This document shows positions 36,816-62,915 of a DNA stretch of 64,000 nucleotides, one piece after another. The stretch lies in contig CAXXHO010000001.1 in assembly GCA_963667725.2 (NCBI GenBank), positions 34,362 through 98,361 on the forward strand, read 5' to 3'. Made by a program: the position numbers and the translations under genes. How positions within the stretch are numbered: the stretch's first letter is position 1; each line of letters opens with the position of its first letter. The DNA is from Treponemataceae bacterium (GTDB lineage Bacteria > Spirochaetota > Spirochaetia > Treponematales > Rectinemataceae). The notes under the pieces were generated by a model that worked only from the letters and a program-made list of their open reading frames with translations, had not been told where the DNA came from and searched no databases.

Positions 36816-37988
36816 TCACTCCGCGAGCCGGTAGATCTTCTCGATGTCGGCGGAGGTCAGTTTGACGAACTGGCCCGTGGTGAAGGCGTCACCCTCGGTG
36901 CACTTGCGCGCCATCTCGGCCGCGCGGTCCAGGTTGATGCCGAGGCCGGAGAGGCGGACCGGCAAGCCGAGCCCCTTCCAGAACGCCTCCAGGCGAGCGA
37001 TGCCCTCGCGGGCGACCGCCTCCTGGTCGAAGTAGCCGGCCTCGACACCCCAGACGCGCACGGCGAGCTGGGCGAAACGGGCGACGTCGTGGGAGAGCGT
37101 GTACTTCATCCAGGCGGGGAAGATGACGGCGAGGCCCGCGCCGTGGGCGACGTCGTAGATGCCGGAGAGTTCGTGCTCGATCATGTGGGATGCCCAGTCG
37201 CCGATCCGCCCGCGGTCGAGGAGGTTGTTGTGCGCCAGGCAGCCGGCCCACATCAGCTCGGCCCAGGCGTCGTAGTCGGTCTTGTCCGCGAGGATCAGCG
37301 GGGCTGCGGCGATCACGGCGCGCAGGGTGGCCTCGATGAGGCGGTCGGAGAAATCGACGTGCCGGACGTTCGTGAAATAGCGCTCGAAGAGGTGGGCCAT
37401 GATGTCGGCCGCGCCGTTGGCGATCTGGCCGGCGGGAAGGGTCATGGCCAGCTCGGGGTTCAGGATCGAGAAGCGCGGCACGATGCAGTCCGCGTTGAGG
37501 GCGCGCTTGAGGGCGCCCTCCTCGTTGGTGAGGACCGAGCCGCCCGAGGACTCGCTGCCGGCGGCCGGGATGGTGAGGACGGTGCCGACGGGCAGGGCGT
37601 CCTTAGGTTCAGGCGCGGCGCCCGAGTAGTAATCCCAAATGTCGCGGTCCGCCAGCGCGCCCACGGCGATGGCCTTGGCCGAGTCGATGACGGAGCCGCC
37701 GCCCACGGCGAGGACGATGCCGACCTTCTCCGCCTTGGCGAGGGCGATGCCCCGGCGGACTAGGCTCAGCGCGGGGTTCGGCTTGACGCCGCCCAGCTCG
37801 ACCCATTCGACGCCGGCGGCGGCCAGGGAGGCGCGCACGCGGGCAAGGAGACCGGATTTCTCGGCGCTGGAACCGCCGAAGTGGAGAAGAGCTTTCTTGG
37901 AATAGCGGACGGCTTCGGCGCCGACGCCGACCTCCGTGCCGCGCCCGAAGATGATCTTGGTGGGAAGCTGCGAAACGAAATTTTCCAT
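36816..37988 (-). CDS. Iron-containing alcohol dehydrogenase (BdhA/YqhD-like)
   Basis: PTKIIFGRG, GVKPNP, GGGSVID, HMIEHELS and HGAGLA; TATAAT and AGGAG upstream. Confidence 0.92.
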   Translation of the reverse strand: MENFVSQLPTKIIFGRGTEVGVGAEAVRYSKKALLHFGGSSAEKSGLLARVRASLAAAGVEWVELGGVKPNPALSLVRRGIALAKAEKVGIVLAVGGGSVIDSAKAIAVGALADRDIWDYYSGAAPEPKDALPVGTVLTIPAAGSESSGGSVLTNEEGALKRALNADCIVPRFSILNPELAMTLPAGQIANGAADIMAHLFERYFTNVRHVDFSDRLIEATLRAVIAAAPLILADKTDYDAWAELMWAGCLAHNNLLDRGRIGDWASHMIEHELSGIYDVAHGAGLAVIFPAWMKYTLSHDVARFAQLAVRVWGVEAGYFDQEAVAREGIARLEAFWKGLGLPVRLSGLGINLDRAAEMARKCTEGDAFTTGQFVKLTSADIEKIYRLAE

Positions 37989-39855: not shown

Positions 39856-40032
39856 CGCCGCTCCTCCCGGAGACGATACCCCACATTCGCGCTGGGCGCC
39901 AGAATAAAAATATCACTTTAGGATATATACTATCAATTCGCGCCATTCCGATCCGCCAAAAGTGGAACATTATATATACAAAGGCTTTAGGTCTCTGTCC
40001 TTGCCGAAAAAAGGCAAAAGGGGGATGTGGGA

Positions 40033-41085
40033 ATGAAAAAATTACTGCTAGTGTTTCTCGGGGTGGCCATCGTCGTTTCCGGCGTATGGGCGCAGAAAGG
40101 AGCGCTGATCGGCGTCGCCATGCCGACCCAGTCGCTGCAGCGCTGGAACCAGGACGGCGCGAACATGAAGGCGAAGCTCGAGGCCAAGGGCTACAAGGTC
40201 GTGCTCCAGTACGCGAACAACGATGTGAACACCCAGGTCCAGCAGCTCGAGAATATGATCACCCAGGGTTGCAAGGTCCTCGTGATCGCCTCGATCGACG
40301 GCTCGGTGCTGAGCGATGTCCTGAAGCAGGCCAAGGAGTTCGACATCAAGGTGATCGCCTACGACAGGCTGATCATGAACACGCCCGACGTCGACTACTA
40401 CGCCACGTTCGACAACTTCAAGGTCGGCGTGATCCAGGGCCAGTACATCGAAAAAGCCCTCGGACTCAAGGAAGGCAAGGGCCCCTACAATCTCGAGCTC
40501 TTCGCCGGATCTCCCGACGACAACAACGCCGTGTTCTTCTTCAACGGCGCCATGAGTATCCTGAATCCGTACATCGCCGCGAAGAAATTCGCCATCCCCT
40601 CGGGCCAGAAGGACTTCACCGTCATCGCCACCCAGAGCTGGGATTCCGCCAAGGCGCAGGCCAGGATGGACAATCTCATCACCGCCAACTACGCCAAGGG
40701 CGCTAAGCTGGACGTCATCCTGTCGCCCAACGACTCGGTGGCCATCGGCGTGATCGCCTCCCTCAAGAACGCGGGATACGGCGCCGGAAAACCCTACCCC
40801 GTGCTGACGGGCCAGGACTGCGACAAGGCGAACGTGAAGGCCATGATTTCCGGACAGCAGTCCATGTCGATCTTCAAGGACACGAGAACGCTCGCCGCCC
40901 AGGTCGTCGACATGGTCGAGTCGCTGATGGCGGGCAAGTACGCCAAGGTGAACGACACCAAGACCTACTTCAACGGCGTCAAGACCGTGCCGTCCTTCCT
41001 CTGCGACCCCGTGTACGCGGACAAGAACAACTACAAGGCCCTGCTCGTCGACAGCGGCTATTATAAGGAAGCCGACCTCAAGTAA
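40033..41085 (+). CDS. chvE: Multiple-monosaccharide binding protein (ChvE-like)
   Basis: [37 protein letters not shown] and TGQD. Confidence 0.88.
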
Positions 41086-41103
41086 TTCTGGCCCTCGGCC
41101 ATG

Positions 41104-41143
41104 GCGAAAGGGCTGGCCCGCAAAGGCGGGCCAGCCCTTTCGC
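41104..41143 (+). terminator. Intercistronic 18-bp stem-loop between the SBP and ATPase genes
   Basis: GCGAAAGGGCTGGCCCGC-AAAG-GCGGGCCAGCCCTTTCGC. Confidence 0.65.
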
Positions 41144-41177
41144 GTCCGCGCCGGAACAGGGCAAGGAGCGAGCAACG

Positions 41178-42728
41178 TTGAGCGATATCATCCTTGAAAT
41201 GCGGGACATCTCGAAAACTTTCCCGGGCGTGACGGCGCTGAGCCACGTGAACCTTTCGATACGCCGCGGAGAGATCCACGCGCTCGTGGGGGAGAACGGC
41301 GCGGGAAAGTCGACGCTCATGAACATCCTGAGCGGCGTCCTCCCCCACGGAACCTACACGGGGAAAATCATCTTCGAGAACGCCGAATGCGCCTTCCACG
41401 ATGTCAGGGACAGCGAGAAAAAGGGCATAGGAATCATCCACCAGGAGCTCGCGCTCATTCCCTACCTCTCCATCGGCGAGAATGTCTTCCTGAGGAACGA
41501 GCGGGCGAAACGAAATATCATCAACTGGGATGTCACCTACCGGGAGGCGAAGAAATATCTCGACCTCGTCGGGCTCCGGGAAAATCCCAGAACCGCGGTC
41601 AAGGACATCGGCGTCGGCAAGCAGCAGCTCGTCGAGATAGCCAAGGCGCTGTCGCGCCAGGCCAAGCTCCTCATCCTGGACGAGCCGACGGCGTCGCTCA
41701 ACGAGGACGATTCGCGGCACCTGCTCGAACTGCTCCTCGACCTCAAGTCGAAAGGGCTCACCTCGATCCTCATATCGCACAAGCTCAACGAGATTTCGCA
41801 GGTGGCCGACTCCATCTCGATCCTGCGCGACGGCCTCACCGTGGAGACCTTGCTGAAAGGAACCGACGCCATCGACGAGAACCGGATCATCAAAGGCATG
41901 GTGGGCCGCGAGCTGGTGGACCGCTTCCCCAAGCGGACCCCGAATATCGGCGGCGTCGCCTTCGAGATCAAGAACTGGAATGTCTTCAGCCCCATCAATC
42001 CGGACCGCCAGATAATCAAGAATGTCAGCATCCATGTGCGCGAAGGCGAAGTCATCGGCTTGGCGGGCCTGATGGGGGCGGGGCGCACGGAATTGGCGAT
42101 GAGCATTTTCGGGCGTTCCTTCGGCACGAAGATCAGCGGCCGCGCAATCAAGCGGGCTAAGGAAATCAGCATCGGCAGCGTCCAGCAGGCGATCGAGCAG
42201 GGCATTTCCTACGCGACGGAGGACCGGAAGACGGCCGGCCTCAATCTCATCGGCGACATCAAGGAAAACATAACGATAGCGGGCCTGAAAAAATTGTCCA
42301 AGCGTTGGGTGATCGACGCGGACCGCGAGATCGGCGTCGCCGAGGAATACAGGGCGAAGCTCAATATCCGGTCGTCCAGCATCCTTCAGAAGGCGGGCAA
42401 TCTGTCCGGCGGGAACCAGCAGAAGATCGTCCTCTCGAAATGGATCTTCACCGAGCCGGACGTCCTCATTCTTGACGAGCCTACGCGCGGCATCGACGTG
42501 GGCGCCAAATTCGAAATCTACACCATCATCAACAAGCTCGCGGACGAGGGCAAATCGGTCATCTTCATCTCGTCCGAGCTTCCGGAGATCTTGGGCATCT
42601 CCGACCGGATATACGTGATGAACGAAGGCCAGATCGTCGGCGAGTTCCCCCGCGGGGAAGCGACGCAGGAAGGCATCATGAAGTGCATCATGCAGAGCTC
42701 AAGGGAGAGCGGCAATGGAAAACATTAA
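41178..42728 (+). CDS. mmsA: Multiple-monosaccharide ABC ATP-binding protein (MmsA/GguA)
   Basis: [15 protein letters not shown] and LSGGNQQK; follows chvE. Confidence 0.88.
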
Positions 42729-43887
42729 AACCATACTGAAAAACAACCTCCGGCAATACGCGATGCTCATCGCCCTCGTCTTCATCATGGGGCTCTTCCA
42801 GATTCTCACGAAAGGCATCCTCCTTGTCCCGATGAACGTGACGAACCTGATCCTGCAGAACGCGTACGTGTTCATCCTGGCGATCGGCATGACGCTCTGC
42901 ATCCTGACCGGCGGCAATATCGACCTTTCGGTCGGCTCCATAGTCGCCTTCATCGGCGCGCTTTGCGGCAATTTCATCATCACCATGAACATGAATCCGG
43001 CCGCGTCGCTCGTGCTGGTCCTGCTCATCGGCCTTGTGATCGGCGTCTGGCAGGGCTTCTGGATCGCCTACGTGCGCATTCCGGCCTTCATCGTCACGCT
43101 GGCGGGGCAGCTGCTTTTCCGCGGCCTCACGCTCTTCATGCTGAAGGGCCTGACGCTGGGACCCTTCCCCGAACAATTCCAGCGGATCAGCTCGGGGTTC
43201 GTTCCCGACATTCTGGGGATGCCCAAGGGCGCGCTGAACGGCACCACGCTCATCGCGGGAGGGCTCGCGGTCGCCTTCTACTGCGTCTCGCAGATCGCCC
43301 GGCGGGCCTCGCACAAGCGCAACGGTTTCGAGGTTCCGCCCCTCGCCGCCTTCGTCGCCAAAATGGCGCTCATGACGCTCGTCATCGTCCTGGCCACCTT
43401 CTGGCTCGCGCGGTACAAGGGCTTGCCGATCATTTTCGTGATCATCTGCGTGCTGATCGCGGGGTACTCGTTCTTCACGATGCGCACGGTGCCGGGAAGG
43501 TATCTCTACGCCATGGGCGGCAACGAGAAGGCCGCCCAGTTGTCGGGGATCAACACCAACAAGGTCCTTTTCCTGGCCTATGTGAACATGAGCGTGATGG
43601 CGGCCATAGCGGGCATAGCGTTCACGTCCCGCCTCAACGCTGCCTCGCCGCAGTCCGGGCAGAACTTTGAGCTGGACGCGATCGCCGCCTGCTTCATCGG
43701 CGGAGCCTCGGCCTACGGAGGCGTGGGCACGATCATCGGCGCCATCATCGGCGCGCTGGTCATGGGCGTCCTGAACAACGGAATGTCGATCCTGGGCATG
43801 GGCAGCGACGTGCAGCAGATCGTCAAAGGGCTCGTGCTGCTCCTCGCCGTCGCCTTCGACGTGATCTCCAAGAAAAAGGCGCGCTGA
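42715..43887 (+). CDS. mmsB: Multiple-monosaccharide ABC permease (MmsB/GguB)
   Basis: [25 protein letters not shown] and [12 protein letters not shown]. Confidence 0.88.
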
Positions 43888-44053: not shown

Positions 44054-44107
44054 GGGCGCAGTGGATAAAAAACCATCCATTCGCTGGATGGTCAAGGAGG
44101 ATGTGCT

Positions 44108-45769: not shown

Positions 45770-45825
45770 GCAGACTATCGGGGGCGGCCGCCGCCCCCGG
45801 TTTTTCCCCAGGAGGAGAACTCACC

Positions 45826-46452: not shown

Positions 46453-46468
46453 CGCCAAGGAGGTCGCC

Positions 46469-47758: not shown

Positions 47759-47770
47759 GGAGGCGGCGCG

Positions 47771-47926: not shown

Positions 47927-47943
47927 CGGAAGGGAGGCTTGGT

Positions 47944-49122: not shown

Positions 49123-49124
49123 GG

Positions 49125-49159
49125 ACAGGATCCCAGGACTGGCGGGATTTACAGGAATC
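49125..49159 (+). repeat. Degenerate ACAGGAT tandem units just after a stop codon
   Basis: acaggatcc caggactg gcgggattt acaggaatc. Confidence 0.5.
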
Positions 49160-49227
49160 CGCTGCGCGGGGTCCCGCCGCACCGTTCCCCGCCGCAGCCT
49201 CGGCGCCCAGCCTCCCCGCTCCCGCGC

Positions 49228-51124: not shown

Positions 51125-52387
51125 CTAGATCGAGGGCGCGTGCGCGAGGAGATAGTCTTCGGCAGCCTTGCACCAGAGCCCGTCGTTGGCCGCGGTCAGG
51201 CGGGCCAGCTCGGCGTAGAAGGGATCGGCCTTGCCGCGCTCGGCGAAATCGGCTATCGCGACCAGGTCCAGCTTCTTATGCGTGTAGATCAGCTTCTTGG
51301 CGCCGGGAATCTTGTCCAGGTTGATCGTGGTTTCAGCCACGGCGTTGAGCCCGCCGATATGGGTGATCATCACCTCGGGCTTGAGCGCGCGGGAGGCCAT
51401 CATGGCCAGCGACTCGACGATGTCGTCCGTGTTGCCGCCCGAGGTGCCCACGAGGTGGTGCGCCGCGTAGTGCACGTCGTAGAAGTTGAGCGATGCCGAG
51501 AAAGCCGGATCGTTGGGGCCGGCGAAGAAGTTGAGGCAGCCGTCCTGGCCGAGGAGCTTGTCGGCGAGCTCGACGACGGGCTTGACCGGCGCGAAGCAGA
51601 AGACGTCATCGAACTTTTTGCCGCCGTTGAGCGACACCAGGTGGGAGACCGGGTCGGGGATGTCCTTGGTGTTCACGTAGATCAGCTCGATGCCATTCTT
51701 CCGGGCCTCCTCCACGGTGATCAGGGAGGCGGCGCGCTTGAGCCGGGCGTCGTCGATGTCGGTGACGACGATGCGTCCGGGCTTGCGTCCGGCGTGGATG
51801 GCGTAGTCGATGGCGCCCATGCCCATGGGGCCGACGGAAGCCAGGAGGGCCAGGCTGCCGCCGGGTACGATGCCCATGGCATGCTCATAGGAGCCCGGCG
51901 TAGTGTGGTACTGGGCGTGGTAGGCGCCGACGATGCAGGACATCGGCTCGGAGAGCGAGCCCATGAAGAAGGCGTCGGCCTGGTAGGGCAGGAGGCAGCC
52001 CATCTCCATAACCTCGGCGGGAATGACGATATAGGTGGCGTCGCCGCCGATGTGCTTATAGGAGTAGCCGGGCGCCCAGAGCGTGCCCTGGTAGTTGATG
52101 GCCGGCTGGATGGCGAACTTGTCGCCCGCCTTGAATTGGTCCGTCCATTTGGCGCCGATTTTGACGAGCCTGCCGCAGAACTCGTGGCCGATGATCGCCG
52201 GCTCCTGGGCCAGCGGGCCGCGGACGCGCTTGTGCGCGTCGCCCTGCATGGCGAGCTTGTGGCTGGACATGCAGATCGAGTCGGAGACGACCTCCGCGAG
52301 GATTTCGTCGTCCTTGATTTCGGGGAGCTCGAACTCTTCGAGCCTGAGATCGTTGACGCCATATATGCGGACCGCTTTCGTCTTCAT
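51125..52387 (-). CDS. Zn-dependent MDR dehydrogenase, L-sorbose-1-phosphate reductase-like
   Basis: SDSICMSS, IGHEFCG, SEPMSCI, GTSGG and THIGGL; RBS AAAGGAG. Confidence 0.85.
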   Translation of the reverse strand: MKTKAVRIYGVNDLRLEEFELPEIKDDEILAEVVSDSICMSSHKLAMQGDAHKRVRGPLAQEPAIIGHEFCGRLVKIGAKWTDQFKAGDKFAIQPAINYQGTLWAPGYSYKHIGGDATYIVIPAEVMEMGCLLPYQADAFFMGSLSEPMSCIVGAYHAQYHTTPGSYEHAMGIVPGGSLALLASVGPMGMGAIDYAIHAGRKPGRIVVTDIDDARLKRAASLITVEEARKNGIELIYVNTKDIPDPVSHLVSLNGGKKFDDVFCFAPVKPVVELADKLLGQDGCLNFFAGPNDPAFSASLNFYDVHYAAHHLVGTSGGNTDDIVESLAMMASRALKPEVMITHIGGLNAVAETTINLDKIPGAKKLIYTHKKLDLVAIADFAERGKADPFYAELARLTAANDGLWCKAAEDYLLAHAPSI

Positions 52388-52515
52388 TCGCAAATCTCCT
52401 TTAATTCAAATCTCGATATATAACATACTCAACAAGGGTGCGGGAGGCCAAGGCGGCGCGTGCGCGGCGCGGCGGGGGGCGCTCATAGCGGCTCCGGCCG
52501 CGGCCCCGCCGCCCC

Positions 52516-54051
52516 TCACTTCGCCTCGGCGATCAGCGCGAGCCACTTCTCGCGGTAGGCCGCGAAATCCGCGAGGCCGGGCATCGGCTCGGCGGGGATT
52601 CGGGCGATCGAGAAGAGCCCGCCGAGGGCCGAGGGCGTCGTGCCTTCGAGGGCGGCCAGGCCCGTGAGCGCCGCGCCGAAGGAAGTCGCCTCGCTCATGT
52701 CCGTGAGACGGACGGGGTTGGCCGGCAGGGCGGCCGCGAGGATGGCGTTGTAGTCGCGGTTGTTGCGGAAGCCGCCCTCGGTGAAGATCGTCTGCCCCGG
52801 CGCGAGCCCGGCGCGCTCGAGGGCGACCATGGTCTGCAGGGCCAGGGAAAGGTTGAGGACGGCCTCGGCCGCGGCCTGATCCGCCATGAAGGCAGGCCGG
52901 GCGCGCCCCGACTCGATGTCGGCGAGCCTGAAGCGTCGCCCGCCCTCGACGGCCTGGGGTATGGAGCCGGGGAATTGTCCCGACCCGGGCACGATCTCAG
53001 GGAGAATGAAGGCCGAACGCTTGGCCAGGATCTTCGCGTAGAGGGCGGGGCTCGGCGAGGCCGTTGCCGCGGCAGGGGCGGCCGCGTGGGCCGAGCCGCC
53101 GGGCTTGGCGCCGAAGAGGCCCGTCCAGACCTCGTATTCCTTGCCGCCCAGGAAAATGGCGGTCTTGACCGGCTTGTTGTAGGCTGAGCGGTTGAAGAAG
53201 ACCACCTTGCCCAGCTCGTCGGGCGCGAATCCGTATTCCTCCTGCGGATGCATGAGGACGCACCAGGTGCCGGTCGAGTTCACGATGAAGTCGGTTCCCG
53301 AATCCTTGACCAGGTAGGGCAGGAGGGAGGCGTTGGAGTCGTGGATCCCCATGGTGACGACTGTGTCCGGTTTGAGCCCGGTGGCCGCGGCGACCTCGGG
53401 CTTAATGGCGCCCAATATTTCCCAGGAATCCTTGAGGGGGAATGGAAGCTTTTTTTCGATGCCGAGCTTTTCGGCCACCGATGAATAGCCGCCGCGCTTC
53501 CAGTCGTAGAGGTAGGTGTGGCAGCCGATGAAGGTGCCCTCGACGCCCGCCTTGCCGGTGAGCCTCATGCCCCAGTACTGGGGATAGGGCAGGACGAGGG
53601 CCGCCGAGGCGAATTCCGACGGATACAGCTCCTTGAGGAGGAAGAGCCCCTTGGCGGGGTTGATGAGGGCGGAGAAGTTGGGCGTTCCCGTGGCGGCCTG
53701 GAGCTCGCGCGGATCGCCGGCCATGGCGTAGAAACGCTTCTGGAATTCGCCGCCCGGCTCGTGCGTGTAGAAGAGGCAGGGCGCCACGGGGTTCCCCGCA
53801 GCGTCGGCGCACACGAAGGTGGCGCCGTGCGTGGTCACCGCGATGGCGCCGATGTCCGAATCGCGAGCGAAATCGCGCAACGTTTCTAGGAACCACGCCT
53901 CCATGCCGGCGAGGTCGTGGGCTTCGATTCCTCCGGCGATCTTCGGCTCGAAGACCTTCTTCCTTATGCCGACGAGGCCGAGACTCCCGTCGTAGACGGC
54001 CACTTTCTTGTTCGTCATCCCGATGTCGATGACGGCGATAGTCCTATCCAT
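52516..54051 (-). CDS. FGGY family carbohydrate kinase
   Basis: VIDIGMTNKK, TTHGA, GCHT, GIHDSNAS and STGTW. Confidence 0.88.
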   Translation of the reverse strand: MDRTIAVIDIGMTNKKVAVYDGSLGLVGIRKKVFEPKIAGGIEAHDLAGMEAWFLETLRDFARDSDIGAIAVTTHGATFVCADAAGNPVAPCLFYTHEPGGEFQKRFYAMAGDPRELQAATGTPNFSALINPAKGLFLLKELYPSEFASAALVLPYPQYWGMRLTGKAGVEGTFIGCHTYLYDWKRGGYSSVAEKLGIEKKLPFPLKDSWEILGAIKPEVAAATGLKPDTVVTMGIHDSNASLLPYLVKDSGTDFIVNSTGTWCVLMHPQEEYGFAPDELGKVVFFNRSAYNKPVKTAIFLGGKEYEVWTGLFGAKPGGSAHAAAPAAATASPSPALYAKILAKRSAFILPEIVPGSGQFPGSIPQAVEGGRRFRLADIESGRARPAFMADQAAAEAVLNLSLALQTMVALERAGLAPGQTIFTEGGFRNNRDYNAILAAALPANPVRLTDMSEATSFGAALTGLAALEGTTPSALGGLFSIARIPAEPMPGLADFAAYREKWLALIAEAK

Positions 54052-54143
54052 TCTGCCTCCAAAATCGCGCAACGCTTAAGGGCGTATAGCGCCGCGCGGC
54101 GCCATTGCCGACTCAGCGCCGCCGCGGCGAAACGTTGTGCGAT

Positions 54144-55364
54144 CTAGTTGAGCATCACCTGGCCGCCGGCTACCGGCAGGGCCTGGCCCGTCTCGTATTC
54201 CTGCTCCACGATGTAGTAGAGGGCCCGCATGACATCGGCGCCGGTGGCGCCCCGCCCCATCGGGACCTTGGCCTCGTAGAACGCCCGCACGTCGGCGACC
54301 GTTTTTGCGCCGGGCACTTTGCCCGAGTTGAGGTACTGCACGAAAAGGCCTTTCACGGGGTCGGACCAGAGCGGACCGTCCAGAAAGTTACCAGGGCAGA
54401 TGGCGTTCACCTTGATGCCGTGCGCGACCAGTTCCAGCGCGAAGCTCTGCACGAGGCCGAGGCCGCCGAACTTGGATCCCGCGTAGGCGCCGTTCTTGTT
54501 GGAGCCCTCGAGGCCGGACTTTGAGTTGATCTGCACGATGTCCGTGAGCCAGCGGGGCGCCGTGCGGCGCTGGCGCGCGAGGAGGCGCCCGCCGTGCTTG
54601 GCGATGAGGAAGAAGGCGACGTAGTTGACGTCGGTGACGAGGCGGAAGCTCTTCTCATCCTGCTCGAGAACGGAGCCGGCTCGGACGATACCGGCGTTCG
54701 ACACGATGAGGTCGAGGCCGCCCGTCGACGCGGCGATCTGGTCGAACATCGCGGCCACGGAAGTCTCGTCCGAGACGTTGACCGCCACCGCTTGGGCGCG
54801 GACGCCGCCCGGGGCCGCGTTCAGCTCGCCCGCGAGCTGCTCGGCGCCGGCGAGGTTCATGTCGGCGATGAAGACGAAGGCGCCCGAGGCCGCGAGGCCG
54901 CGGACGATCTCGGCGCCGAAGCCCTGGGCGCCGCCGGTGACGAGGGCGACCTTGCCCGCCACCACGGCCGCGCGGCCGAGTGCGGAGTTGGCCGCGGCGG
55001 CCGCGTGGGCGGCGGGAGAAATGCCGGGGATCGATTCGAGACGTGAGACGGCGTACGCCAGCTTCTCGCGGCCGAGGGACACCTCCACCAGCGCGGGAAG
55101 CGCGGCCTCCGCGCCGCCAGCCCGGACGGCATTGAACGCGGCCTTGAGCGCGGCGGCGGCCGCCGCCTCGTCCGGCCGGCCCTCCGTATCGAGGACGGAA
55201 TCGGGCAACGCGAGGGAGAAACGCGCGGCGGCCTCGGGCGCCGCGGCAACGTTGCGCGGCGCGTCAACGTTGTGCGGCGCGACGATCACGGGCGCCTTCG
55301 CCGCGTCGAGGAAGAGGCCCCGAACCAGCGGGGCGATCAGGGCATCGTTCAAAACGCTCATCAT
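54144..55364 (-). CDS. SDR, sorbitol-6-phosphate 2-dehydrogenase-like, with a ~135-aa N-terminal extension
   Basis: TGGAQGFG, QINSKSG, YAGSKFGG, CPGNFLDGPLW and YETGQA. Confidence 0.85.
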   Translation of the reverse strand: MMSVLNDALIAPLVRGLFLDAAKAPVIVAPHNVDAPRNVAAAPEAAARFSLALPDSVLDTEGRPDEAAAAAALKAAFNAVRAGGAEAALPALVEVSLGREKLAYAVSRLESIPGISPAAHAAAAANSALGRAAVVAGKVALVTGGAQGFGAEIVRGLAASGAFVFIADMNLAGAEQLAGELNAAPGGVRAQAVAVNVSDETSVAAMFDQIAASTGGLDLIVSNAGIVRAGSVLEQDEKSFRLVTDVNYVAFFLIAKHGGRLLARQRRTAPRWLTDIVQINSKSGLEGSNKNGAYAGSKFGGLGLVQSFALELVAHGIKVNAICPGNFLDGPLWSDPVKGLFVQYLNSGKVPGAKTVADVRAFYEAKVPMGRGATGADVMRALYYIVEQEYETGQALPVAGGQVMLN

Positions 55365-56803
55365 TCGTACCTTCCTTTCAAGAGCCGTTCGGCGGCGACA
55401 CGCGCGTCGATGCCGGCGCGGCCGAGATCGGCGCCCGCCTTGGCGTAGAGGGCTATCCTCTCCTCGAGGCCCAGGGCCGCGTAGGGGTTGGCCTTGGCGA
55501 AAAGCCCCAGGTCGGGATTCGCGGCCGAAAGAGCCTCGTGGGCGACCATGGCCCAGGTCGCCGCGTTGAGGTGGGCGAACTCCGGACGGCGCAGCTCGGG
55601 GCAGTTGAAGGACTGCCGCGGCTGGTTGATGTCCACGCCGGAAATTTCCATAAAGCCGTATTCGCGGCAGAGCTCCCGCATGCGGGCGAGCTGGGCCGCG
55701 GTGTTGCGCGGCGGCATGTAGGTCACCGCCAGAAAGCCGATCTCCTTCAGCTCCACGAAAAGCTCGGGGAGGAAATCGTCCTCGAACTTTTCGGCCTTCT
55801 TGTCGCCGGTGGGCGACTCGCCCACGTCGCCCAGGTAGGCGTAGGCGGGGATGGCGCCGATCGACCGCGCGAAGGCGCAGGCGTCCCGGGCCAGAACGCA
55901 TTCGTCCGCGGGCTGGATGAAGAAGCTGGGCAGGAATTCGGCCTTGAGGAGGCCGAGGAGGTCATAGACAAGGTAGGGATTGGCGGGGTCGGAGAGCGTA
56001 GCGCTGGTTTTGGGTTTGAGGGCCAGGCCCAGCTTCGATTCCAGGCCGGCAGCGAGGGCCTCGCCGAGGCCGAACCCGGCGATCAGAGCCTCCGCCATGG
56101 CGGCGAGAAGGTGCCGTTCCGTCACGGTGCCGCCCTGGGCGTACTTGGAGCGCCCGACGACGTCCCGCTCGAAATCGAAGGGTGCGAGGCCGGCGGCTTC
56201 GAGAATGCCGTTCGCCCTCCCCGCCATCGCGGCGGTGCGCGCGAGCCTGCGCTCCCTGACCGGGGCCAGGAACGCCGCGACCTTTTCGGCCGCCTGGACG
56301 GGAACGCCCTGGACGGTCATGTAGATGATGCCGGCGGAATCGGGGTTGTTGATCTTGCGCGAGGCGAAGGCCGCCGCCGCGCCGCCCGCCGCCACTTCCT
56401 CCGGCGAGTGCAGGAAGGCGCGGATCTCGAAGCCCGTCACCGCGCCCAGGCCGAGGAGGGCGCAGGCCGCGCGCATTTCGGCCGCGCCTGCCAGGGAGTC
56501 GTGGTCGACCGAGCCGGCCACGGTGAGGCCGGCCTTCCACGCCCCGAGCGCGGCCGCTGCCGGCGCGTAGGGGCTGAAGCTGTAGATCGTGTGGATATGG
56601 TTGTTGGATTCCTCGGCAACGGTCCGGCCAGCGGCGTTTGCCGCAGCGTTGGCCGCAACGCTGGCCGCGGCGCCGCCGTCGGCGGCCGCGCCCGCAGCAA
56701 CCGCCCTTCCGGCCGGGGCGAACCCCGGCGCCGAGGCGAAGGCCGCGAGGGCGGCGAGCCTCTCTTCGGGGCTGGCCGCGAAATCGTTGATCGCTTCGTG
56801 CAT
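55361..56803 (-). CDS. PHP-domain protein
   Basis: NNHIHTIYS, VDHDS, GFE and YAYLGD; the final motif SGVDIN is atypical. Confidence 0.75.
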   Translation of the reverse strand: MHEAINDFAASPEERLAALAAFASAPGFAPAGRAVAAGAAADGGAAASVAANAAANAAGRTVAEESNNHIHTIYSFSPYAPAAAALGAWKAGLTVAGSVDHDSLAGAAEMRAACALLGLGAVTGFEIRAFLHSPEEVAAGGAAAAFASRKINNPDSAGIIYMTVQGVPVQAAEKVAAFLAPVRERRLARTAAMAGRANGILEAAGLAPFDFERDVVGRSKYAQGGTVTERHLLAAMAEALIAGFGLGEALAAGLESKLGLALKPKTSATLSDPANPYLVYDLLGLLKAEFLPSFFIQPADECVLARDACAFARSIGAIPAYAYLGDVGESPTGDKKAEKFEDDFLPELFVELKEIGFLAVTYMPPRNTAAQLARMRELCREYGFMEISGVDINQPRQSFNCPELRRPEFAHLNAATWAMVAHEALSAANPDLGLFAKANPYAALGLEERIALYAKAGADLGRAGIDARVAAERLLKGRYE

Positions 56804-56830
56804 AGGTTCGCTCCGGTATCGGGCCGCGGC

Positions 56831-59287
<2,457 letters not shown>

Positions 59288-59310
59288 CGTCTATCTCCTT
59301 GTACTATGAC

Positions 59311-60693
59311 TTAGTCTTTCATGGCCCAGGCGGCTTCGCGGATGGCCTCGGAAACCGTGGGATGGGGGAATACGAGCTGGCGCAGGTCGGACACGCGCAG
59401 CTCCTGCTCGATCACGGCGGAGGCGCCCCAGATAGTCTCGGAGGCGTAGGCGCCGACGATGTGGACGCCGATGATCCTGCCCGAGGCGGCCTCGGCGATG
59501 AGCTTGGCCGTGCCGGGGGCGGCGAAGCCGTTCTCGGCGGCGAAGCGGCCGGAGACGCGCAGGGGCACGCTCGAGGTCTTGACCGCGATGCCGCGCCGCT
59601 CGGCTTCCTGCTGGGTGAGGCCGATGCCCGCCGCTTCGGGGATGGAGTAGACGGCCCAGGGGATCGCGTCCCAGCGGAGCGTCTCGCCGCGGGCGGCGGC
59701 GGCTTCGCCGTCGACGATGTTGGCGGCGGCCACTTCGGCCATGCGGTAGGCGGTGTGCGCCAGGAGGCTGCGCCCCGTGACGTCGCCCACGGCCCAGACC
59801 TTGGGTAGGTTGGTGCGCATGCGGTCGTCCACGACGACGCCCTTGGGCGAGACGTCGAGCCCCGCTTCCTTGGCGCCCCAGCCTTCGACGTTGGGCTTGC
59901 GGCCGACGGCCATCAGGACGAGGTCGGCTTCGGACTTGGCCTCGGATCCGTCTTTCTTCCTATAAAATACCGTGGCGCCCTCGATCTTCTCGACCTTGCA
60001 GCCGAGGTTGAAGGTGACGCCTTTCAGGCCGCGGCGCAGGATCGGCGCCGCTTCCCTGTCCATGAAGGGGACGATCTCGTCGAGCATCTCGACGACCTCG
60101 ACCTCGGCGCCGAGGGCCGAGAAGAGGCTGGCGAACTCGACGCCGATGACGCCGCCGCCGATCACGCAGAGGCGCTTGGGCACCTCGGGGACCGAGAGGA
60201 GGCCGGTCGAATCCACGACTTTGGGGTTGCCGCGGCAGCCGGGGATCGGCGGCATCACGGGAAGGGAGCCCGTGGCGACGATAATGTGTTCAGTATCGTA
60301 CACTTTTTCGCCGATCTGGACCTTGCCAGGGCCGAGGAGCTTGGCTTCGGCGGCGATCACGTCCACGCCGAGCTTCTTCTCGGTCAGGCCGATGGCGCCG
60401 ACGAGCTTGGAGACGACCTCTTCCTTCCAGGCTTGCATGGCCTTCCAGTCGTAGCGGACGTTGTCCGCGGAGACGCCGAACTTGGCGCCTTCCCTGGCAT
60501 GGACATAGAGCTTGGCCGAGTTGAGGAGGGTTTTGGTGGGTATGCAGCCGACGTTGAGGCAGGTGCCCCCGAGGGCGCTCTTCTCGGCCAGGGCGACTTT
60601 CTTTCCGGCGTGGGCGAGGCGCTCCGCGGCCAGGTAGCCGCCAGGTCCGCCGCCCATCACGATGACATCGTACTTGTCCATTTTTTTGTACAT
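59311..60693 (-). CDS. lpdA: Dihydrolipoamide dehydrogenase (E3)
   Basis: GGGPGG, GGTCLNVGCIPTK, GGGVIG and HPTVSE. Confidence 0.94.
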   Translation of the reverse strand: MYKKMDKYDVIVMGGGPGGYLAAERLAHAGKKVALAEKSALGGTCLNVGCIPTKTLLNSAKLYVHAREGAKFGVSADNVRYDWKAMQAWKEEVVSKLVGAIGLTEKKLGVDVIAAEAKLLGPGKVQIGEKVYDTEHIIVATGSLPVMPPIPGCRGNPKVVDSTGLLSVPEVPKRLCVIGGGVIGVEFASLFSALGAEVEVVEMLDEIVPFMDREAAPILRRGLKGVTFNLGCKVEKIEGATVFYRKKDGSEAKSEADLVLMAVGRKPNVEGWGAKEAGLDVSPKGVVVDDRMRTNLPKVWAVGDVTGRSLLAHTAYRMAEVAAANIVDGEAAAARGETLRWDAIPWAVYSIPEAAGIGLTQQEAERRGIAVKTSSVPLRVSGRFAAENGFAAPGTAKLIAEAASGRIIGVHIVGAYASETIWGASAVIEQELRVSDLRQLVFPHPTVSEAIREAAWAMKD

Positions 60694-60701
60694 CCTCCCG
60701 T

Positions 60702-62130
60702 TTAGGCGAGCATCACTATGTCGATGTTCGCGATGTAGTCGGCCAGGTCCTTGAGGTAGCGGGCCGCGTCCGCGCCGTCCACGATGCGGTGGTCGACGGT
60801 GAGCGAGAAGCCGATGCGCATCTCGACGCCCGGTTTTCCGTCGGGGCCGATGGCCGCGCGCGGCGCGATGTTGTCCACGCCCAGGATGCCGGTCTCGGGC
60901 TCGTTCAGGATCGGGGTGAAGCTCTCGATGCCGAAGGCGCCGAGGTTGGTCACGGTGAAGGTGGAGCCGGAGAGGCTGTCGGGGTTGGCGGCGCCGTCCA
61001 GGCAGGCTTTAGCGAGGCTCTTGGACTGCTCGGAGAACTGGCGCAGCGAAAGCGCGTTGGCGTTCCGGATCACGGGGACCATGAGGGCCGCGCGGCGTGT
61101 CGACCGCCAGGCCGAGGTGGACGTTCTTCCAGGCGCGCACCGTTCCGTCCACGACGTGGGCGTTGATCTTGGGATACTTGGCCAGGACGCGGCTCGCGGC
61201 GAAGGCGACCATGTCGCCGATCGTCACGGCGGAGAGGCCGAGGGCAGGGTCGGAATTCTTGAGGCGGTTGCGCATGGCCAGGAGCTTTTCCGCGGGGGCG
61301 CTGGCGTTGAAGGTGAGCTGGGCGCTGGCCTGCAACGAGTGCATCATGCGGTCCGCGATGATCTTGCGGATGCTCCTGATGGGCGTGTCCTCGTAGGGGC
61401 CGGGGAAGGAGGCTGCTGCTTGCGCAGCGGGGGCGGCGGGCTGGGGCGCGGCGGAGGCCGGGGCTGCCGCGGGGGCGGCCTTGGCGGCGTCGAGGTCGGC
61501 GGCGGTGAGCCTTCCGCCCAGGCCGGAGCCGGTCTTGGCGGCGTCGTAGAGGCCGCGCAGGACGGCGAGGTCCTTGGCCGAGGCGGTCATGCCGGCGCCG
61601 GCGGAAAGGGCGGCCTGCACATCGCGCTCGATGATCCGGCCGCCGGGGCCGGTGCCAGCCGCGACAGCCTCGATGGGGAGGCCTTCCTCGCGGGCGAGGG
61701 CCTTGGCGCGGGGGCTGGCGTGGACGGGTCCTGCGGGGACAGCCGCAGCTGCGGCTGCAGTGGCGGCCGGAGCGGCGGCGACTGCCGCGGGGGCGGCTTC
61801 GTCGGCCGGTGACGCGGCAGCCTCGGCTGCGGGAGCTGCGGCGGCCGGGCTTGCTCCCCGGATTCCCAACGCGGCCAGATCCACCGCCTCGCCGGCCTGC
61901 CCGACCACGGCGATCGGCGCCAGCACGGGGACATCGTCGCCCTCGGCGGCCAGGCGCTTGAGAAGCACGCCCGCGGCGCCGGCGGGGACGTCCATCGTCG
62001 CCTTGTCGGTTTCGATCTCGCAGAGGACGGCGTCGGCCGCCACGGCCTGCCCTTCCTCGATGTTCCATTTCACGATGATGCACGACTCCACGGTATTCCC
62101 GAGCTTCGGCATGACCACGACTTGAGCCAT
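60702..62130 (-). pseudogene. Dihydrolipoamide acyltransferase (E2) interrupted by a +1 frameshift near 61085-61087 (real or sequencing error)
   Basis: Lipoyl motif ETDKA, E3-binding ASPRAK and LAVDTPRG in one frame; LMVPVIR...DHRIVDG continues in the next frame. Confidence 0.85.
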
Positions 62131-62139
62131 AATGCCTCC

Positions 62140-62895
62140 CTAGACGACGCGCACGTTGAGCGCGTTTTCCTGCATCGCCGCAAGGGCGTTCTTTTCAATT
62201 CCGGAATCGGTGATGATGCCGTCCACCTCGGACAGCGCGAGCACGTTGACGAAGCCCGACTCTCCGTATTTGGACGAGTCGGCGACCAGCCAGGTCTCCT
62301 TGGCCCGCGAGCGCATGGCCTTGACCACCTCCGAGCCCTCGACGAGCTGGGTGGTGAGGCCGCGCTCCACGCTGAAGCCGTCCGTGCCGACGAAGGCCAG
62401 GCGCACGTTGAACTCGGAGATGGCCTTGAGGGTGACGGGTCCGACGAGGGACTCGGTTTCCTTCCGGAAGACGCCTCCCGTCAGGATGATGTTGAGGGCG
62501 GGGTTGAGCCGCGCGTAGGAGAAGACGAGGGTGGAGTTGGTGACGACCTGGACGCCGCGCCTTCCGGCGAGGTAGCGCGCGATGAGGGCGGTGGTCGTGC
62601 CCGCCTCGATCATGATGGAGTCGCCGTCGCGGACAAATTCCGCCGCCGCGCGGGCGATGCGGTTCTTCTCCTCCACGCGGAGGCGCTGCCGGTCGATGAT
62701 GTCCTTGTAGAAGGCGGGATAGGCGCCGCCCCGCGTGCGGTTTATGTAGCCCTTTTCTTCCAGGGCCTTGAGGTCGGAGCGGATCGTGACTTCGGAGACG
62801 GCGAGCTCGCGAGCGAGCGAGGCCACCGAGAGCGAGCCTTCGTTCGCAAGCTTGTCGAGCATAAAGGATTCGCGCTCGTTCAGGTCGAAGTTCAT
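62140..62895 (-). CDS. DeoR/GlpR family transcriptional regulator
   Basis: VSEVTIRSDL..L...G.I.RTRGGA, EAGTT, VVTNS and DSSK. Confidence 0.93.
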   Translation of the reverse strand: MNFDLNERESFMLDKLANEGSLSVASLARELAVSEVTIRSDLKALEEKGYINRTRGGAYPAFYKDIIDRQRLRVEEKNRIARAAAEFVRDGDSIMIEAGTTTALIARYLAGRRGVQVVTNSTLVFSYARLNPALNIILTGGVFRKETESLVGPVTLKAISEFNVRLAFVGTDGFSVERGLTTQLVEGSEVVKAMRSRAKETWLVADSSKYGESGFVNVLALSEVDGIITDSGIEKNALAAMQENALNVRVV

Positions 62896-62915
62896 CCGGG
62901 CCCCCAATGGATAAA

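Follow-up and report, generated by a model that had tools for sequence, protein, structure and literature searches.

A lipoamide/TPP complex with a fused E1 in a conserved L-fucose/L-rhamnose gene set of a Treponemataceae bacterium

The window, a stretch of 64,000 nucleotides from a Treponemataceae bacterium (contig CAXXHO010000001.1), carries eight co-oriented genes on its minus strand at 51125-62907 (Table 1). All eight had been named in a sequence-only reading of the same DNA and all are present. Its SorE-like and SrlD-like calls were borne out: the zinc dehydrogenase is 44-47% identical to sorE-annotated plasmid genes and 54% identical to E. coli yggP over 99% of its length, and the nearest solved structure of the SDR is sorbitol-6-phosphate dehydrogenase 5o3z (148.8 bits; next best 99). 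A DeoR gene lies upstream of E2 in the related loci as well. No aldolase or transketolase gene was found inside the eight-gene cluster.

Table 1. Features of the locus, in positions of the window
Feature	Position	Strand	Basis and remarks
L-fucose isomerase FucI	34891..36699	+	PF07881, PF07882, PF02952; putatively same island
Iron-type alcohol dehydrogenase (Fe-ADH), YqhD-like	36816..37964	-	PF00465; PRK15138 250 bits; putative association
CUT2-type sugar ABC transporter: binding protein, ATPase, permease	40027..43887	+	putative association
SorE/YggP-family zinc dehydrogenase (ketose-1-phosphate reductase family)	51125..52393	-	PF08240, PF00107
FGGY sugar kinase	52516..54072	-	PF00370, PF21546
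SrlD-like SDR, 405 aa, 130-aa N-terminal extension	54144..55361	-	PF00106
PHP-fold protein, 480 aa	55361..56803	-	predicted fold (AlphaFold, Foldseek)
Fused E1 alpha-beta, TPP-dependent, 818 aa	56831..59287	-	PF00676, PF02779, PF02780
E3 dihydrolipoyl dehydrogenase	59311..60693	-	TIGR01350 453.3 bits, cut-off 408.8; PF07992, PF02852
E2 dihydrolipoyl acyltransferase, two frames in assembly	60702..62130	-	PF00364, PF02817, PF00198
CCC run with one extra base, breaking E2 frame	61085..61087	-	sequence reading
DeoR-family regulator, operon gene 1	62140..62907	-	PF00455 175 bits, PF08220

The lipoyl, E3-binding and catalytic domains of E2 are divided between two open reading frames, 61009-62130 and 60702-61082. 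This frameshift is probably an assembly error, because every covering contig from four of four public runs has one base fewer in the CCC run and the two halves are in a single frame in all 55 related loci that hold both. The second genomic copy of E2 is intact (493 aa).

The fused E1 scores under the PDH E1 equivalog cut-offs (232 vs 321 and 180 vs 394). In the tree it forms its own clade (SH-aLRT 100), on long stems (0.82 for beta, 1.74 for alpha), separate from six split E1 references that include PdhAB, Bkd and AcoAB-labelled sequences. The complex is distinct from the housekeeping PDH, because its E1 clade is separate, AceE (over 1300 bits) is encoded alongside it, together with another E2, in all four actinobacterial carriers, and PFOR is encoded in the source spirochaete genome. 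It is less probable, though conceivable, that the operon encodes a sugar-induced pyruvate dehydrogenase that yields acetyl-CoA and NADH during deoxy-sugar use, the PHP and SDR proteins serving a separate step. The top named models of E1 and E2 are PDH components, the nearest solved structures are PDH/BCKDH E1 beta, and the catalytic Glu is retained, as is the His equivalent to Geobacillus H128-beta, a residue whose role is treated in PMC2663715. The DeoR-E2-E3-E1 operon stands isolated amid housekeeping genes in three loci inspected, and the source genome has no AceE and no E2 beyond these clusters except a short broken fragment on contig C7. However, every PDH equivalog cut-off was missed, the stems are long, PFOR is already present, and such an enzyme would be redundant with AceE in the four actinobacteria and redundant also in rhizobia and in three spirochaete genomes of one family (f44), where several further E1-beta-like genes accompany the fused E1 in each.

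A Pfam search with the PHP-like protein gave no match. Its AlphaFold (AF2) model has a pLDDT of 91.1, and the top Foldseek matches of the model are the PHP phosphoesterases 3e0f, 3o0f, 2yb1 and 9etk (E 3e-10 to 1e-8); by sequence, the alignment to PDB entries is limited to the first three strands. The invariant residues are H69, H71, D100, H101, D102, E126 and D391. The SDR start codon, set via alignment to the second copy, overlaps the PHP stop. At 210 bits the SDR misses the cut-off of the SrlD model NF009050 (307), it scores 110-118 bits on butanediol/acetoin reductase models, and R14 and G15 are invariant within its N-terminal extension. The substrates of the SorE/YggP and SrlD families are sugar phosphates. 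For the FGGY kinase the top named model is XylB at just 45 bits and the sole solved relative is 3h6e, and no canonical rhamnulokinase was found in the source genome (best score 67 bits, cut-off 528). The kinase belongs to an uncharacterised subfamily and is a candidate fuculose/rhamnulose kinase.

The fused E1 directly precedes the PHP gene in 59 of 80 related loci; it is absent there in 13 despite at least 3 kb of upstream sequence, and eight are too short to judge. The SDR gene directly follows PHP in 72 of the 80 (absent in 3, too short in 5). This arrangement is not chance. The sequence-only reading had named an E1 that groups with and behaves as an ordinary pyruvate or acetoin dehydrogenase, together with an unconserved linkage, as the findings that would overturn it. 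Neither was found, since the E1 clade is separate from the references used and the linkage is kept across phyla.

What that reading missed is the 6-deoxyhexose (L-fucose/L-rhamnose) context, and its overall interpretation is partly supported. FucI lies 15 kb from the cluster within the window. The source genome holds a second syntenic copy of the cluster with the same layout, in which DeoR is 86% identical, fucI is again upstream, and the adjacent transporter (PF13407, PF00005, PF02653) has proteins 95%, 82% and 80% identical to the CUT2 proteins of the window. Among the fetched loci the core adjoins fuc or rha genes in three phyla. In actinomycetes (15-16 loci) fucI, a RhaB-like kinase gene and fucU stand directly before the DeoR gene, and in Treponema (8-10 loci) PHP-SDR is flanked by rhaA, rhaM, a RhaE-like aldolase gene and a rhamnulokinase gene; the core-adjoining kinases of both groups are RhaB-like (340-453 bits to TIGR02627).

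Across 151 Spirochaetia genomes, PHP and RhaA occur together in 52, PHP only in 7, RhaA only in 7 and neither in 85 (phi 0.81). RhaA or FucI is present in all 59 PHP-bearing genomes and the fused E1 in 58 of them; the table of E1 against RhaA or FucI reads 70/7/12/62 (phi 0.75). XylA, used as the control for co-occurrence, gave a phi of 0.43-0.50. A pyruvate dehydrogenase would leave unexplained both this excess over the XylA baseline and the tight PHP-SDR operon link. These results give good support to the view that the cluster is one copy of a conserved L-fucose/L-rhamnose catabolic gene set. Equally well supported are its core, a DeoR-controlled lipoamide/TPP three-component complex with a fused E1 coupled to PHP-fold and SrlD-like proteins, and the spirochaete version, which adds a SorE-family reductase and a novel FGGY kinase. 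The same set adjoins fucose/rhamnose genes in several bacterial phyla, not only in the source spirochaete.

An alpha-ketol derived from a sugar is a plausible substrate for cleavage by the complex. Our preferred and still tentative reading, to which we give a probability of about one in three, is that the SorE-like and SrlD-like enzymes shift the carbonyl to the methyl end, after which the complex cuts off acetyl-CoA. The 6-deoxy-ketose from FucI (or RhaA) would be converted to the 1-phosphate by the kinase, and then reduced at C2 by the SorE-like and oxidised at C5 by the SrlD-like enzyme, comparable to SorE and SorD in the L-sorbose pathway. The product would be a 1-deoxy-2-ketohexose 6-phosphate, in which the carbonyl now lies at the methyl end, in effect a phosphorylated acetoin analogue. 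An acetoin-dehydrogenase-like oxidative cut of this methyl alpha-ketol would give acetyl-CoA, NADH and a tetrose 4-phosphate, and a phosphorylated intermediate or product may be the target of the PHP protein.

Several observations count against this acetyl-CoA scheme. In five of five near-complete Spirochaetia genomes where the E1-E2-E3 operon occurs without PHP, SDR and SorE-like orthologues (E 1e-30 or better) are missing too, so the complex can have a substrate independent of these enzymes. By our own Fischer-projection reading, the tetrose phosphate formed would be D-threose 4-phosphate or L-erythrose 4-phosphate and not D-erythrose 4-phosphate, and an extra step would therefore be needed. 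The scheme gives the PHP protein no defined step. When fermenting rhamnose, C. saccharolyticus, which by its printed annotations has the same gene set, forms 1,2-propanediol, acetate, H2 and CO2 in the ratio 1:1:1:1 (PMC4187192); under those conditions the methyl end thus leaves as propanediol and not as acetate. A pyruvate role would fit this balance.

Class II aldolase genes in or near the clusters also count against the scheme, since they make a classical aldolase split available. A RhaE-like gene adjoins rhaA elsewhere in the source genome, another lies within the cluster in termite-gut Treponema, and such genes score on bifunctional aldolase/dehydrogenase models. The absence of an aldolase, as first noted, therefore stands for the cluster and fails for the pathway. 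With such a split, FucA or a RhaD/RhaE-like aldolase would give DHAP and L-lactaldehyde, and the complex would convert L-lactaldehyde or a close derivative, e.g. methylglyoxal, to an acyl-CoA and NADH. We consider this about as improbable as a sugar-induced pyruvate dehydrogenase. It is the published guess for Caldicellulosiruptor, proposed on the grounds that those genomes lack lactaldehyde dehydrogenase and reductase (Rodionov 2021, PMC8579813). Aldolase genes adjoin PHP-SDR in Treponema and Caldicellulosiruptor, and the E1 complex tracks FucI or RhaA even where PHP, SDR and SorE-like proteins are not detected. Fe-ADH genes beside several clusters (related ones lie downstream in loci L013, L014, L017 and L018) suggest an aldehyde intermediate. 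However, lactaldehyde oxidation gives no role to the conserved SorE-like, SrlD-like and PHP genes, and two E1-carrying genomes, 97% (G013) and 95% (G109) complete, gave no class II aldolase match at all. It is also weakened by the fact that we know of no E1 whose physiological role is to oxidise a free aldehyde. Moreover, according to PMC4187192, lactaldehyde in C. saccharolyticus undergoes stoichiometric reduction to propanediol and not oxidation.

The sequence-only reading had offered glycolyl-CoA as an example product, formed with an aldose phosphate by a transketolase-like C2-C3 cut of a ketose or ketose phosphate. E1 and transketolase share a fold (PF02779, PF02780). On rhizobial plasmids a fused E1 53-54% identical to ours, accompanied by a free lipoyl protein and an AcoC-like acyltransferase, sits within ketose/polyol kinase loci without an aldolase. 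The example is nevertheless a poor fit and very improbable. RhaB-type kinases phosphorylate C1, and the core-adjoining kinases are RhaB-like, which would leave no free glycolyl end and block such a cut; a 6-deoxyketose would moreover release a 4-deoxytetrose, for which there is no known route. In a literature search on lipoyl/transketolase-type dehydrogenase complexes making it, none of the papers listed contained the term glycolyl-CoA.

We hold it just as doubtful that the cluster is an ordinary acetoin/2,3-butanediol dehydrogenase system whose proximity to sugar genes is incidental. For the Caldicellulosiruptor proteins, the best matches in print are AcoC, AcoL and an entry for acetoin dehydrogenase (33-42% identity), the SDR has its scores on butanediol/acetoin reductase models, and the rhizobial relatives employ an AcoC-type acyltransferase. 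However, the SDR scores far better on SrlD, E1 and the AcoAB-labelled reference separate in the tree, and fuc/rha adjacency is seen in three phyla, plus Caldicellulosiruptor by its published table. DeoR regulators usually sense sugar phosphates, which also counts against an acetoin system.

Among known systems, the closest is the rhamnose locus of Caldicellulosiruptor (C. bescii Athe_0695-0706, C. saccharolyticus Csac_0865-0876), with its 'predicted dehydrogenase' (PMC8579813). It comprises FucA, RhaD1, a hypothetical protein, SrlD, SorE, LipB, LipA, E2, E3, E1, the DeoR regulator RhaR2 and RhaA; E2, E3 and E1 are printed as 'homologous to acetoin dehydrogenase'. By these printed annotations it has the gene set of the window cluster, although it includes FucA and lipoate genes, which the window cluster does not. 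The cluster with rhaA and aldolase is reported in PMC4187192 to be upregulated on rhamnose. The association is thus already in print and not undescribed as first claimed; in PMC8579813 and PMC4187192, no function is assigned beyond the lactaldehyde-step guess, and to that extent the claim stands.

With RhaEW (Rodionova 2013), as in the present set, rhaA is accompanied by an SDR and by a protein of ~380-440 aa resembling class II aldolases. According to PMC3870299, this bifunctional rhamnulose-1-phosphate aldolase/dehydrogenase shows no cleavage without NAD+, so its two activities are coupled. Here, in contrast, one gene encodes the aldolase-like protein and another the SDR, and often the two do not share a locus; the window SDR reaches 141 bits on TIGR02632 (cut-off 568), and RhaEW organisms need no lipoamide complex.

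The window PHP protein resembles cog0613-type PHP phosphoesterases (the Cv1693/BAD_1165 pAp phosphatase and RNase AM) in its predicted model (Foldseek E 3e-10, TM to target 0.66-0.74) and keeps the HxH, DHD and Glu motifs on strands one to three, but is ~190 residues longer at 11-17% identity. In a by-eye mapping on predicted secondary structure, the later strands, which bear metal ligands in the canonical PHP family, showed no conserved His.

The pair of a SorE-type and a SorD/SrlD-type enzyme, encoded together in sor operons, recurs in the window cluster with the identities given above. However, the cluster has no sorbose PTS, its neighbours are fucose/rhamnose genes, and the conserved N-terminal extension and missed cut-off set the SDR apart from SrlD. 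The acetoin dehydrogenase system (AcoA, AcoB, AcoC, AcoL), to our knowledge the only known superfamily member to cleave an alpha-ketol in place of a 2-oxoacid, likewise combines an alpha-beta TPP E1, a lipoyl carrier, an acyltransferase and an E3, and rhizobial relatives of the fused E1 share its hydrolase-fold AcoC-type transferase. The window complex differs from it in a fused E1 on a separate long branch, an E2 of the standard 2-oxoacid_dh type with PSBD, the order E2-E3-E1, and DeoR and deoxy-sugar genes instead of acoR/sigma-54.

Eight closely packed genes on the minus strand (51125-62907 of the window; see the table) encode a DeoR regulator, the E2, E3 and fused E1 alpha-beta components of a 2-oxoacid dehydrogenase-type complex, a PHP-fold protein, a short-chain dehydrogenase (SDR), an FGGY kinase and a zinc dehydrogenase. 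The sequence-only reading had listed these same eight co-oriented genes, and all of them are present. The E1, E2 and E3 domains are all in place, and the cluster is predicted to encode a complex of this type. The E2 is read in two frames owing to one surplus base in a CCC run. Its two halves share a single frame in each of the 55 related loci that contain both. When contigs from four public runs were aligned to 60500-61700, every covering contig in all four runs had one base fewer at this site, including a 360-base contig from the best run that showed just four other differences. Since the covering contigs of all four runs lack the base, the break is probably a homopolymer assembly error and less probably a strain-specific lesion. 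Contigs of run X7, a sediment metatranscriptome library, are 90-99% alike and cover 28 of 30 bins of the E2/E3 stretch in the same interval, and this coverage is not counted as expression because DNA carry-over is possible. The cluster itself is confirmed and is not an artefact.

Coordinates of the features discussed (window positions unless a locus or contig is named)
Feature	Coordinates	Strand	Assignment or remark
L-fucose isomerase	34891-36699		
CUT2 ABC transporter	40027-43887		
Insertion relative to second copy	43887-49228		about 5 kb
Peptidase C69 gene	44108-45769		in insertion
DUF6305 gene	45610-46452		in insertion
Long ORFs	46469-49122		in insertion; no Pfam match
7TMR-DISM/GGDEF diguanylate cyclase	49228-51015		
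Zinc dehydrogenase		minus	422 aa
FGGY kinase		minus	
Short-chain dehydrogenase	54144-55361	minus	405 aa; start overlaps stop of preceding gene
PHP-fold protein	55361-56803	minus	480 aa; without Pfam match
Fused E1 alpha-beta	56831-59287	minus	818 aa; PF00676 + PF02779 + PF02780 in one protein
E3 dihydrolipoyl dehydrogenase		minus	TIGR01350 453 bits, above curated cut-off 409
E2 acyltransferase	60702-62130	minus	PF00364 lipoyl + PF02817 E3-binding + PF00198 catalytic
CCC run with surplus base	61085-61087		in E2
DeoR regulator	62140-62907	minus	
Second copy (L087)	G000:C5:588000-618000		compared with window 28000-63000
Fused-E1 set, Agrobacterium pAt15955	L094 12001-15484		
Fused-E1 set, Rhizobium indicum plasmid	L095 12001-16484		
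Split-E1 set, Rhizobium sp. B21/90 plasmid	L100 1-9251		
Lipoate-protein ligase gene	L045 7689-8741		adjoins module
LarA-like gene and dehydrogenases	L050 3223-5897		spirochaete locus; upstream of PHP gene

The fused E1 gave its best scores on PDH E1 models, yet it fell under every curated cut-off of the PDH equivalogs (NF006667, 232 bits against 321; NF008854, 228 against 454; TIGR03182, 180 against 394). At the residue level, the equivalents of the catalytic Glu and H128-beta of Geobacillus E1p were conserved in its beta part, F82-beta was aligned to a Tyr and the loop preceding the His was shorter by two residues. This comparison does not discriminate between the candidate substrates. The zinc dehydrogenase had been called SorE-like from the sequence alone, a call borne out by 44-47% identity over 99-100% of its length to three plasmid genes carrying automatic sorE annotations; it is also 54% identical to E. 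coli yggP. The closest solved structure to the SDR is sorbitol-6-phosphate dehydrogenase (149 bits versus 99 for the next), and SrlD is still its best family, although its score on the SrlD equivalog (NF009050, 210 bits) is below the cut-off of 307. It has a conserved N-terminal extension of 130 aa and scored 141 bits on the RhaEW model TIGR02632 (cut-off 568). In RhaEW the RhaW dehydrogenase domain is fused to the aldolase domain, whereas the SDR of the cluster is a separate gene. Fused RhaEW gives DHAP and L-lactate and was described as inactive without NAD+ in the available portion of Rodionova et al. 2013 (PMC3870299). A search for a close characterised relative of the FGGY kinase found none.

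The structural model of the PHP-fold protein (pLDDT 91.1, pTM 0.90) is predicted to adopt a PHP barrel. Its Foldseek matches belong to the Cv1693/BAD_1165/RNase AM group of PHP phosphoesterases (E 3e-10 to 1e-8), with a probability of 1.00 for 3e0f, 3o0f, 2yb1 and 9etk. Sequence alignment to solved structures covers the first three strands only (HxH, DHD and Glu), and the protein exceeds these relatives in length by about 190 residues. In the alignment behind this model, with 36 sequences picked from 80 loci plus both copies from this genome, the candidate metal ligands H69, H71, D100, H101, E126 and D391 were invariant, and inspection by eye against the predicted secondary structure showed no conserved His on the strands at 159-165, 318-322 and 385-388. 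A complex prediction for the PHP protein with the SDR scored 0.00, gave no verdict and counts neither way.

The gene order is conserved well beyond this genome. A search with the PHP protein yielded 353 confirmed relatives, and the best 80 loci were kept. Among these, the fused E1 lies directly upstream of the PHP gene on the same strand in 59; it is missing there in 13 with at least 3 kb available (in four of them it lies elsewhere in the locus), and eight loci were too short. The SDR follows directly downstream in 72 of the 80, is absent in three, and five loci were too short to tell. The full set of DeoR, E2, E3, E1, PHP and SDR genes occurs in 43. The loci come from Spirochaetota, from Actinomycetaceae (Schaalia, Actinomyces, Pauljensenia), from Propionibacteriaceae (Arachnia, Tessaracoccus) and, in one case, from Lentisphaeria (Lentisphaerota). 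In 15-16 actinomycete loci, fucI, a RhaB-like kinase, a LacI regulator and fucU stand directly ahead of the DeoR gene, and in 18 loci a 535-aa zinc dehydrogenase lies about 1 kb downstream of the SDR. The PHP-SDR pair has rhaA, rhaM, a RhaE-like aldolase, rhamnulokinase and a SorE-like gene on its flanks in 8-10 loci of the Treponema type, several of which derive from termite-gut MAGs. Four Propionibacteriaceae loci with full 10-kb flanks hold the six-gene core alone. A class II aldolase on a Schaalia contig (G001:C7), at one point suspected to lie within the cluster, proved to be AraD of an arabinose operon on another contig.

Co-occurrence was assessed in an even sample of 151 Spirochaetia genomes, with xylose isomerase (XylA) as a lifestyle control. 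PHP was present in 59 genomes, RhaA in 59, the fused E1 in 77, FucI in 74 and XylA in 75, in a sample whose relatives are non-independent and many of whose genomes are incomplete. PHP and RhaA occurred together in 52 genomes, PHP alone in 7, RhaA alone in 7 and neither in 85 (phi 0.81). The corresponding counts were 58, 1, 19 and 73 for PHP and the fused E1 (phi 0.76), and 70, 7, 12 and 62 for the fused E1 and either RhaA or FucI (phi 0.75). Against XylA they were 45, 14, 30 and 62 for PHP (phi 0.43) and 57, 20, 18 and 56 for the fused E1 (phi 0.50). All 59 PHP genomes carry RhaA or FucI. The link of the module to deoxyhexose isomerases is clearly above the XylA baseline.

The surroundings in this genome are of the same kind. 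In addition to the L-fucose isomerase and the CUT2 transporter, the window holds a LacI regulator, a YqhD-like iron alcohol dehydrogenase, two PfkB kinases and an AraC regulator. A second syntenic copy of the whole region, comprising FucI, the transporter, the GGDEF gene and then the eight genes, lies on another contig and has an intact E2. The proteins of the transporter and of the eight genes are 64-95% identical between the copies, and the two GGDEF proteins 51%. The two copies may represent co-binned relatives rather than a duplication, because each E1 is near-identical in the wider E1 tree described below to that of a different public MAG (L001 versus L007) and the assembly has a contamination rating of 6.3%; a third fucI lies on contig C7. 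Relative to the second copy, the window carries an insertion of about 5 kb between the transporter and the GGDEF gene, with a peptidase C69 gene, a DUF6305 gene and long ORFs. The GGDEF gene directly follows the SorE-like gene in both copies, and a frameshift suspected in it was ruled out by one full-length tblastn match, which showed it to be intact. Elsewhere in the genome, rhaA stands beside a 410-aa RhaE-like class II aldolase and a transporter, with no kinase or SDR. A canonical rhamnulokinase was not found in the genome (best match 67 bits, cut-off 528), and the FGGY kinase of the cluster would be the obvious candidate for this role.

These observed features, namely gene content, protein families, adjacency, co-occurrence and the separateness of the E1, frame a chemistry that we infer. 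In the L-sorbose pathway, SorE and SrlD-type enzymes shift the C2 carbonyl of a ketose 1-phosphate to the opposite end of the molecule via a polyol phosphate, and to our knowledge this shift is the only known logic for the pair. Methyl alpha-ketols are the substrate type of acetoin dehydrogenase. Acting on L-fuculose-1-P or L-rhamnulose-1-P, the SorE-like and SrlD-like enzymes would give a 1-deoxy-2-ketohexose 6-phosphate, a methyl alpha-ketol, which the fused-E1 complex would cleave to acetyl-CoA and a tetrose 4-phosphate. We give this carbonyl flip followed by acetyl-CoA release a probability of about one in three. It is proposed to join the kinase, the reductase, the SDR and the complex in one path. 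By our own stereochemical derivation it would yield D-threose-4-P or L-erythrose-4-P, not D-erythrose-4-P. The complex would then be a lipoate-dependent 'deoxy-sugar ketolase' that cuts acetyl-CoA from the methyl end of L-fucose or L-rhamnose after the flip, an assignment that is tentative and rather doubtful at present. The sequence-only reading had envisaged an undescribed pathway in which such a complex cleaves a ketose, a ketose phosphate or a 2-keto sugar acid to an acyl-CoA, for example glycolyl-CoA, and an aldose phosphate. This is partly supported overall: the conserved sugar-phosphate partners and the distinct E1 stood, and the cleavage stays conditional. The main reading leaves unexplained the PHP protein, the stand-alone operons described below and the stoichiometric propanediol of C. 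saccharolyticus, in which the available portion of Bielen et al. 2013 gives rhamnose conversion to 1,2-propanediol, acetate, H2 and CO2 at 1:1:1:1 (PMC4187192).

An ordinary function of the complex has to be weighed against this. Alpha and beta trees were built from 12 fused E1 sequences from the loci, two rhizobial fused sequences and six split references (one each labelled AcoAB, PdhAB and Bkd, and three unnamed), leaving out one 74-aa fragment. The fused E1 formed a single clade in both (100 SH-aLRT; long stems of 0.82 for beta and 1.74 for alpha). This phylogeny against PDH, BCKDH and AcoAB, suggested earlier as a check, set the fused E1 apart from the ordinary references, only six in number: apart from PDH E1, with a single PdhAB reference, and apart from the AcoAB-labelled Burkholderia sequence, a weak test with a single Aco reference. 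With so few references, the trees show separateness, not ancestry. The acetoin dehydrogenase system has an AcoC-type E2, with a lipoyl domain and an alpha/beta-hydrolase fold, whereas the E2 of the window has a PF00198 core; the AcoC-type transferase was seen in rhizobial relatives only. Each of the four actinobacterial carriers checked encodes a canonical AceE (>1300 bits) together with a further E2, with OdhA as well in three, so in all four the fused-E1 complex is an additional complex and not the housekeeping PDH. This spirochaete has PFOR. The idea that the fused E1 is the sole PDH of spirochaetes of family f44, in which no PFOR was found, was dropped, as several other E1-beta-like genes are present there. 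In a wider E1 tree of 60 rows, limited to complete ORFs of 780-900 aa, 26 of 26 actinobacterial fused E1 sequences are nested within spirochaete diversity, and this nesting suggests that the module was transferred between phyla.

The complex also occurs outside the sugar-phosphate setting. PHP is absent from 19 of the 77 E1-positive genomes, and in three such loci examined an E2-E3-E1 operon stands alone amid housekeeping genes, with DeoR ahead in two. In five PHP-less E1 genomes of 95-100% completeness, SDR and SorE-like orthologues were not found at E <=1e-30. In two of the five (G013 and G109; loci L104 and L105), both near-complete and with the E1 complex, a class II aldolase gave no match, and fucI is solitary, beside a LacI regulator only or near an FGGY kinase. 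In the wider 60-row tree, the E1 of PHP-less genomes fell outside the main PHP-linked clade, though not cleanly. From the stand-alone operons and the genomes without these orthologues, it appears that the complex can work without sugar-phosphate enzymes. Two other functions fit such operons better than the main reading does. The complex might oxidise lactaldehyde, which we consider unlikely; the available portion of Rodionov et al. 2021 suggests L-lactaldehyde handling and assigns no specific function (PMC8579813). It might equally be a sugar-induced pyruvate dehydrogenase, a similarly improbable role. Each fails either on the conserved sugar-phosphate partners or on the redundancy with AceE. 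The remaining probability goes to chemistry outside the readings considered. Literature searches for a mechanism of a lipoamide complex in fucose or rhamnose breakdown, for lactyl-CoA with fuculose or rhamnulose and for glycolyl-CoA with lipoyl complexes found nothing relevant.

Several neighbouring genes bear on cofactor supply and substrate. A lipoate-protein ligase gene adjoins the module in 4 of the 80 loci (L045, L026, L030 and L038), and a lipoyl synthase gene does so in Agrobacterium and, according to the table in PMC8579813, also in C. bescii; this adjacency suggests that lipoylation mainly serves this complex. In the spirochaete locus L050, a LarA-like gene (lactate racemase N-terminal), an Fe-ADH and a D-2-hydroxyacid dehydrogenase lie upstream of the PHP gene, which hints at lactate chemistry near that cluster. 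Plasmids of Agrobacterium and Rhizobium encode a fused E1 with 53-54% identity, and after it come genes for a free lipoyl protein of 78 aa and an acyltransferase of the AcoC type. These sugar loci also hold lipA, a mannitol-dehydrogenase-family (polyol) gene, xylB xylulokinase, a fructokinase-like kinase, a psicose-epimerase-like (ketose 3-epimerase-like) gene and fucU/rbsD, and the set looks like a ketose-linked system in its own right. On a third rhizobial plasmid (L100), a glucitol-type PTS and a sugar-binding regulator stand directly ahead of split E1 alpha and E1 beta genes, an E2 and an oxidoreductase of 441 aa, making another sugar-linked acetoin-dehydrogenase-like set.

Hosts and plants supply fucose and rhamnose as major sugars, and when these are fermented to 1,2-propanediol the process shapes cross-feeding in the communities of gut and mouth. 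If the complex is a ketolase, oxidation of all six carbons, without loss of 1,2-propanediol by excretion, would be open to anaerobes living in the mouth, the gut, the termite hindgut and sediments. Cleavage of a sugar-derived ketol would broaden the range of reactions of the 2-oxoacid dehydrogenase superfamily and alter the carbon and redox balances assumed for deoxy-sugar fermentation. A long-standing annotation gap is now reduced to directly testable reactions.

A lipoamide complex in rhamnose loci has been on record since the Caldicellulosiruptor genome work and was never given a reaction. In C. bescii, the available portion of the published account lists Athe_0695 (FucA), Athe_0696 (RhaD1), Athe_0697 (hypothetical protein), Athe_0698 (SrlD), Athe_0699 (SorE), Athe_0700 (LipB), Athe_0701 (LipA), Athe_0705 (the DeoR regulator RhaR2) and Athe_0706 (RhaA), with Athe_0702-0704 as the E2, E3 and E1 of a 'predicted dehydrogenase in rhamnose utilization' homologous to acetoin dehydrogenase (PMC8579813). 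The Csac_0865-0876 cluster was upregulated on rhamnose, and the role of its other genes is called unclear in the corresponding portion of Bielen et al. 2013 (PMC4187192). The present analysis shows that a tight link joins the module to deoxyhexose genes in Spirochaetota and in Actinomycetota of the families Actinomycetaceae and Propionibacteriaceae, that the complex is extra to the housekeeping PDH in the actinobacteria checked and that its partners are sugar-phosphate enzymes. The deoxyhexose-linked lipoamide complex has been noted in print and never characterised, and the system described here is a further, well-conserved member; if it is a ketolase, deoxyhexose pathways would be of four kinds and a complex of the 2-oxoacid-dehydrogenase type would have its first sugar-phosphate substrate.
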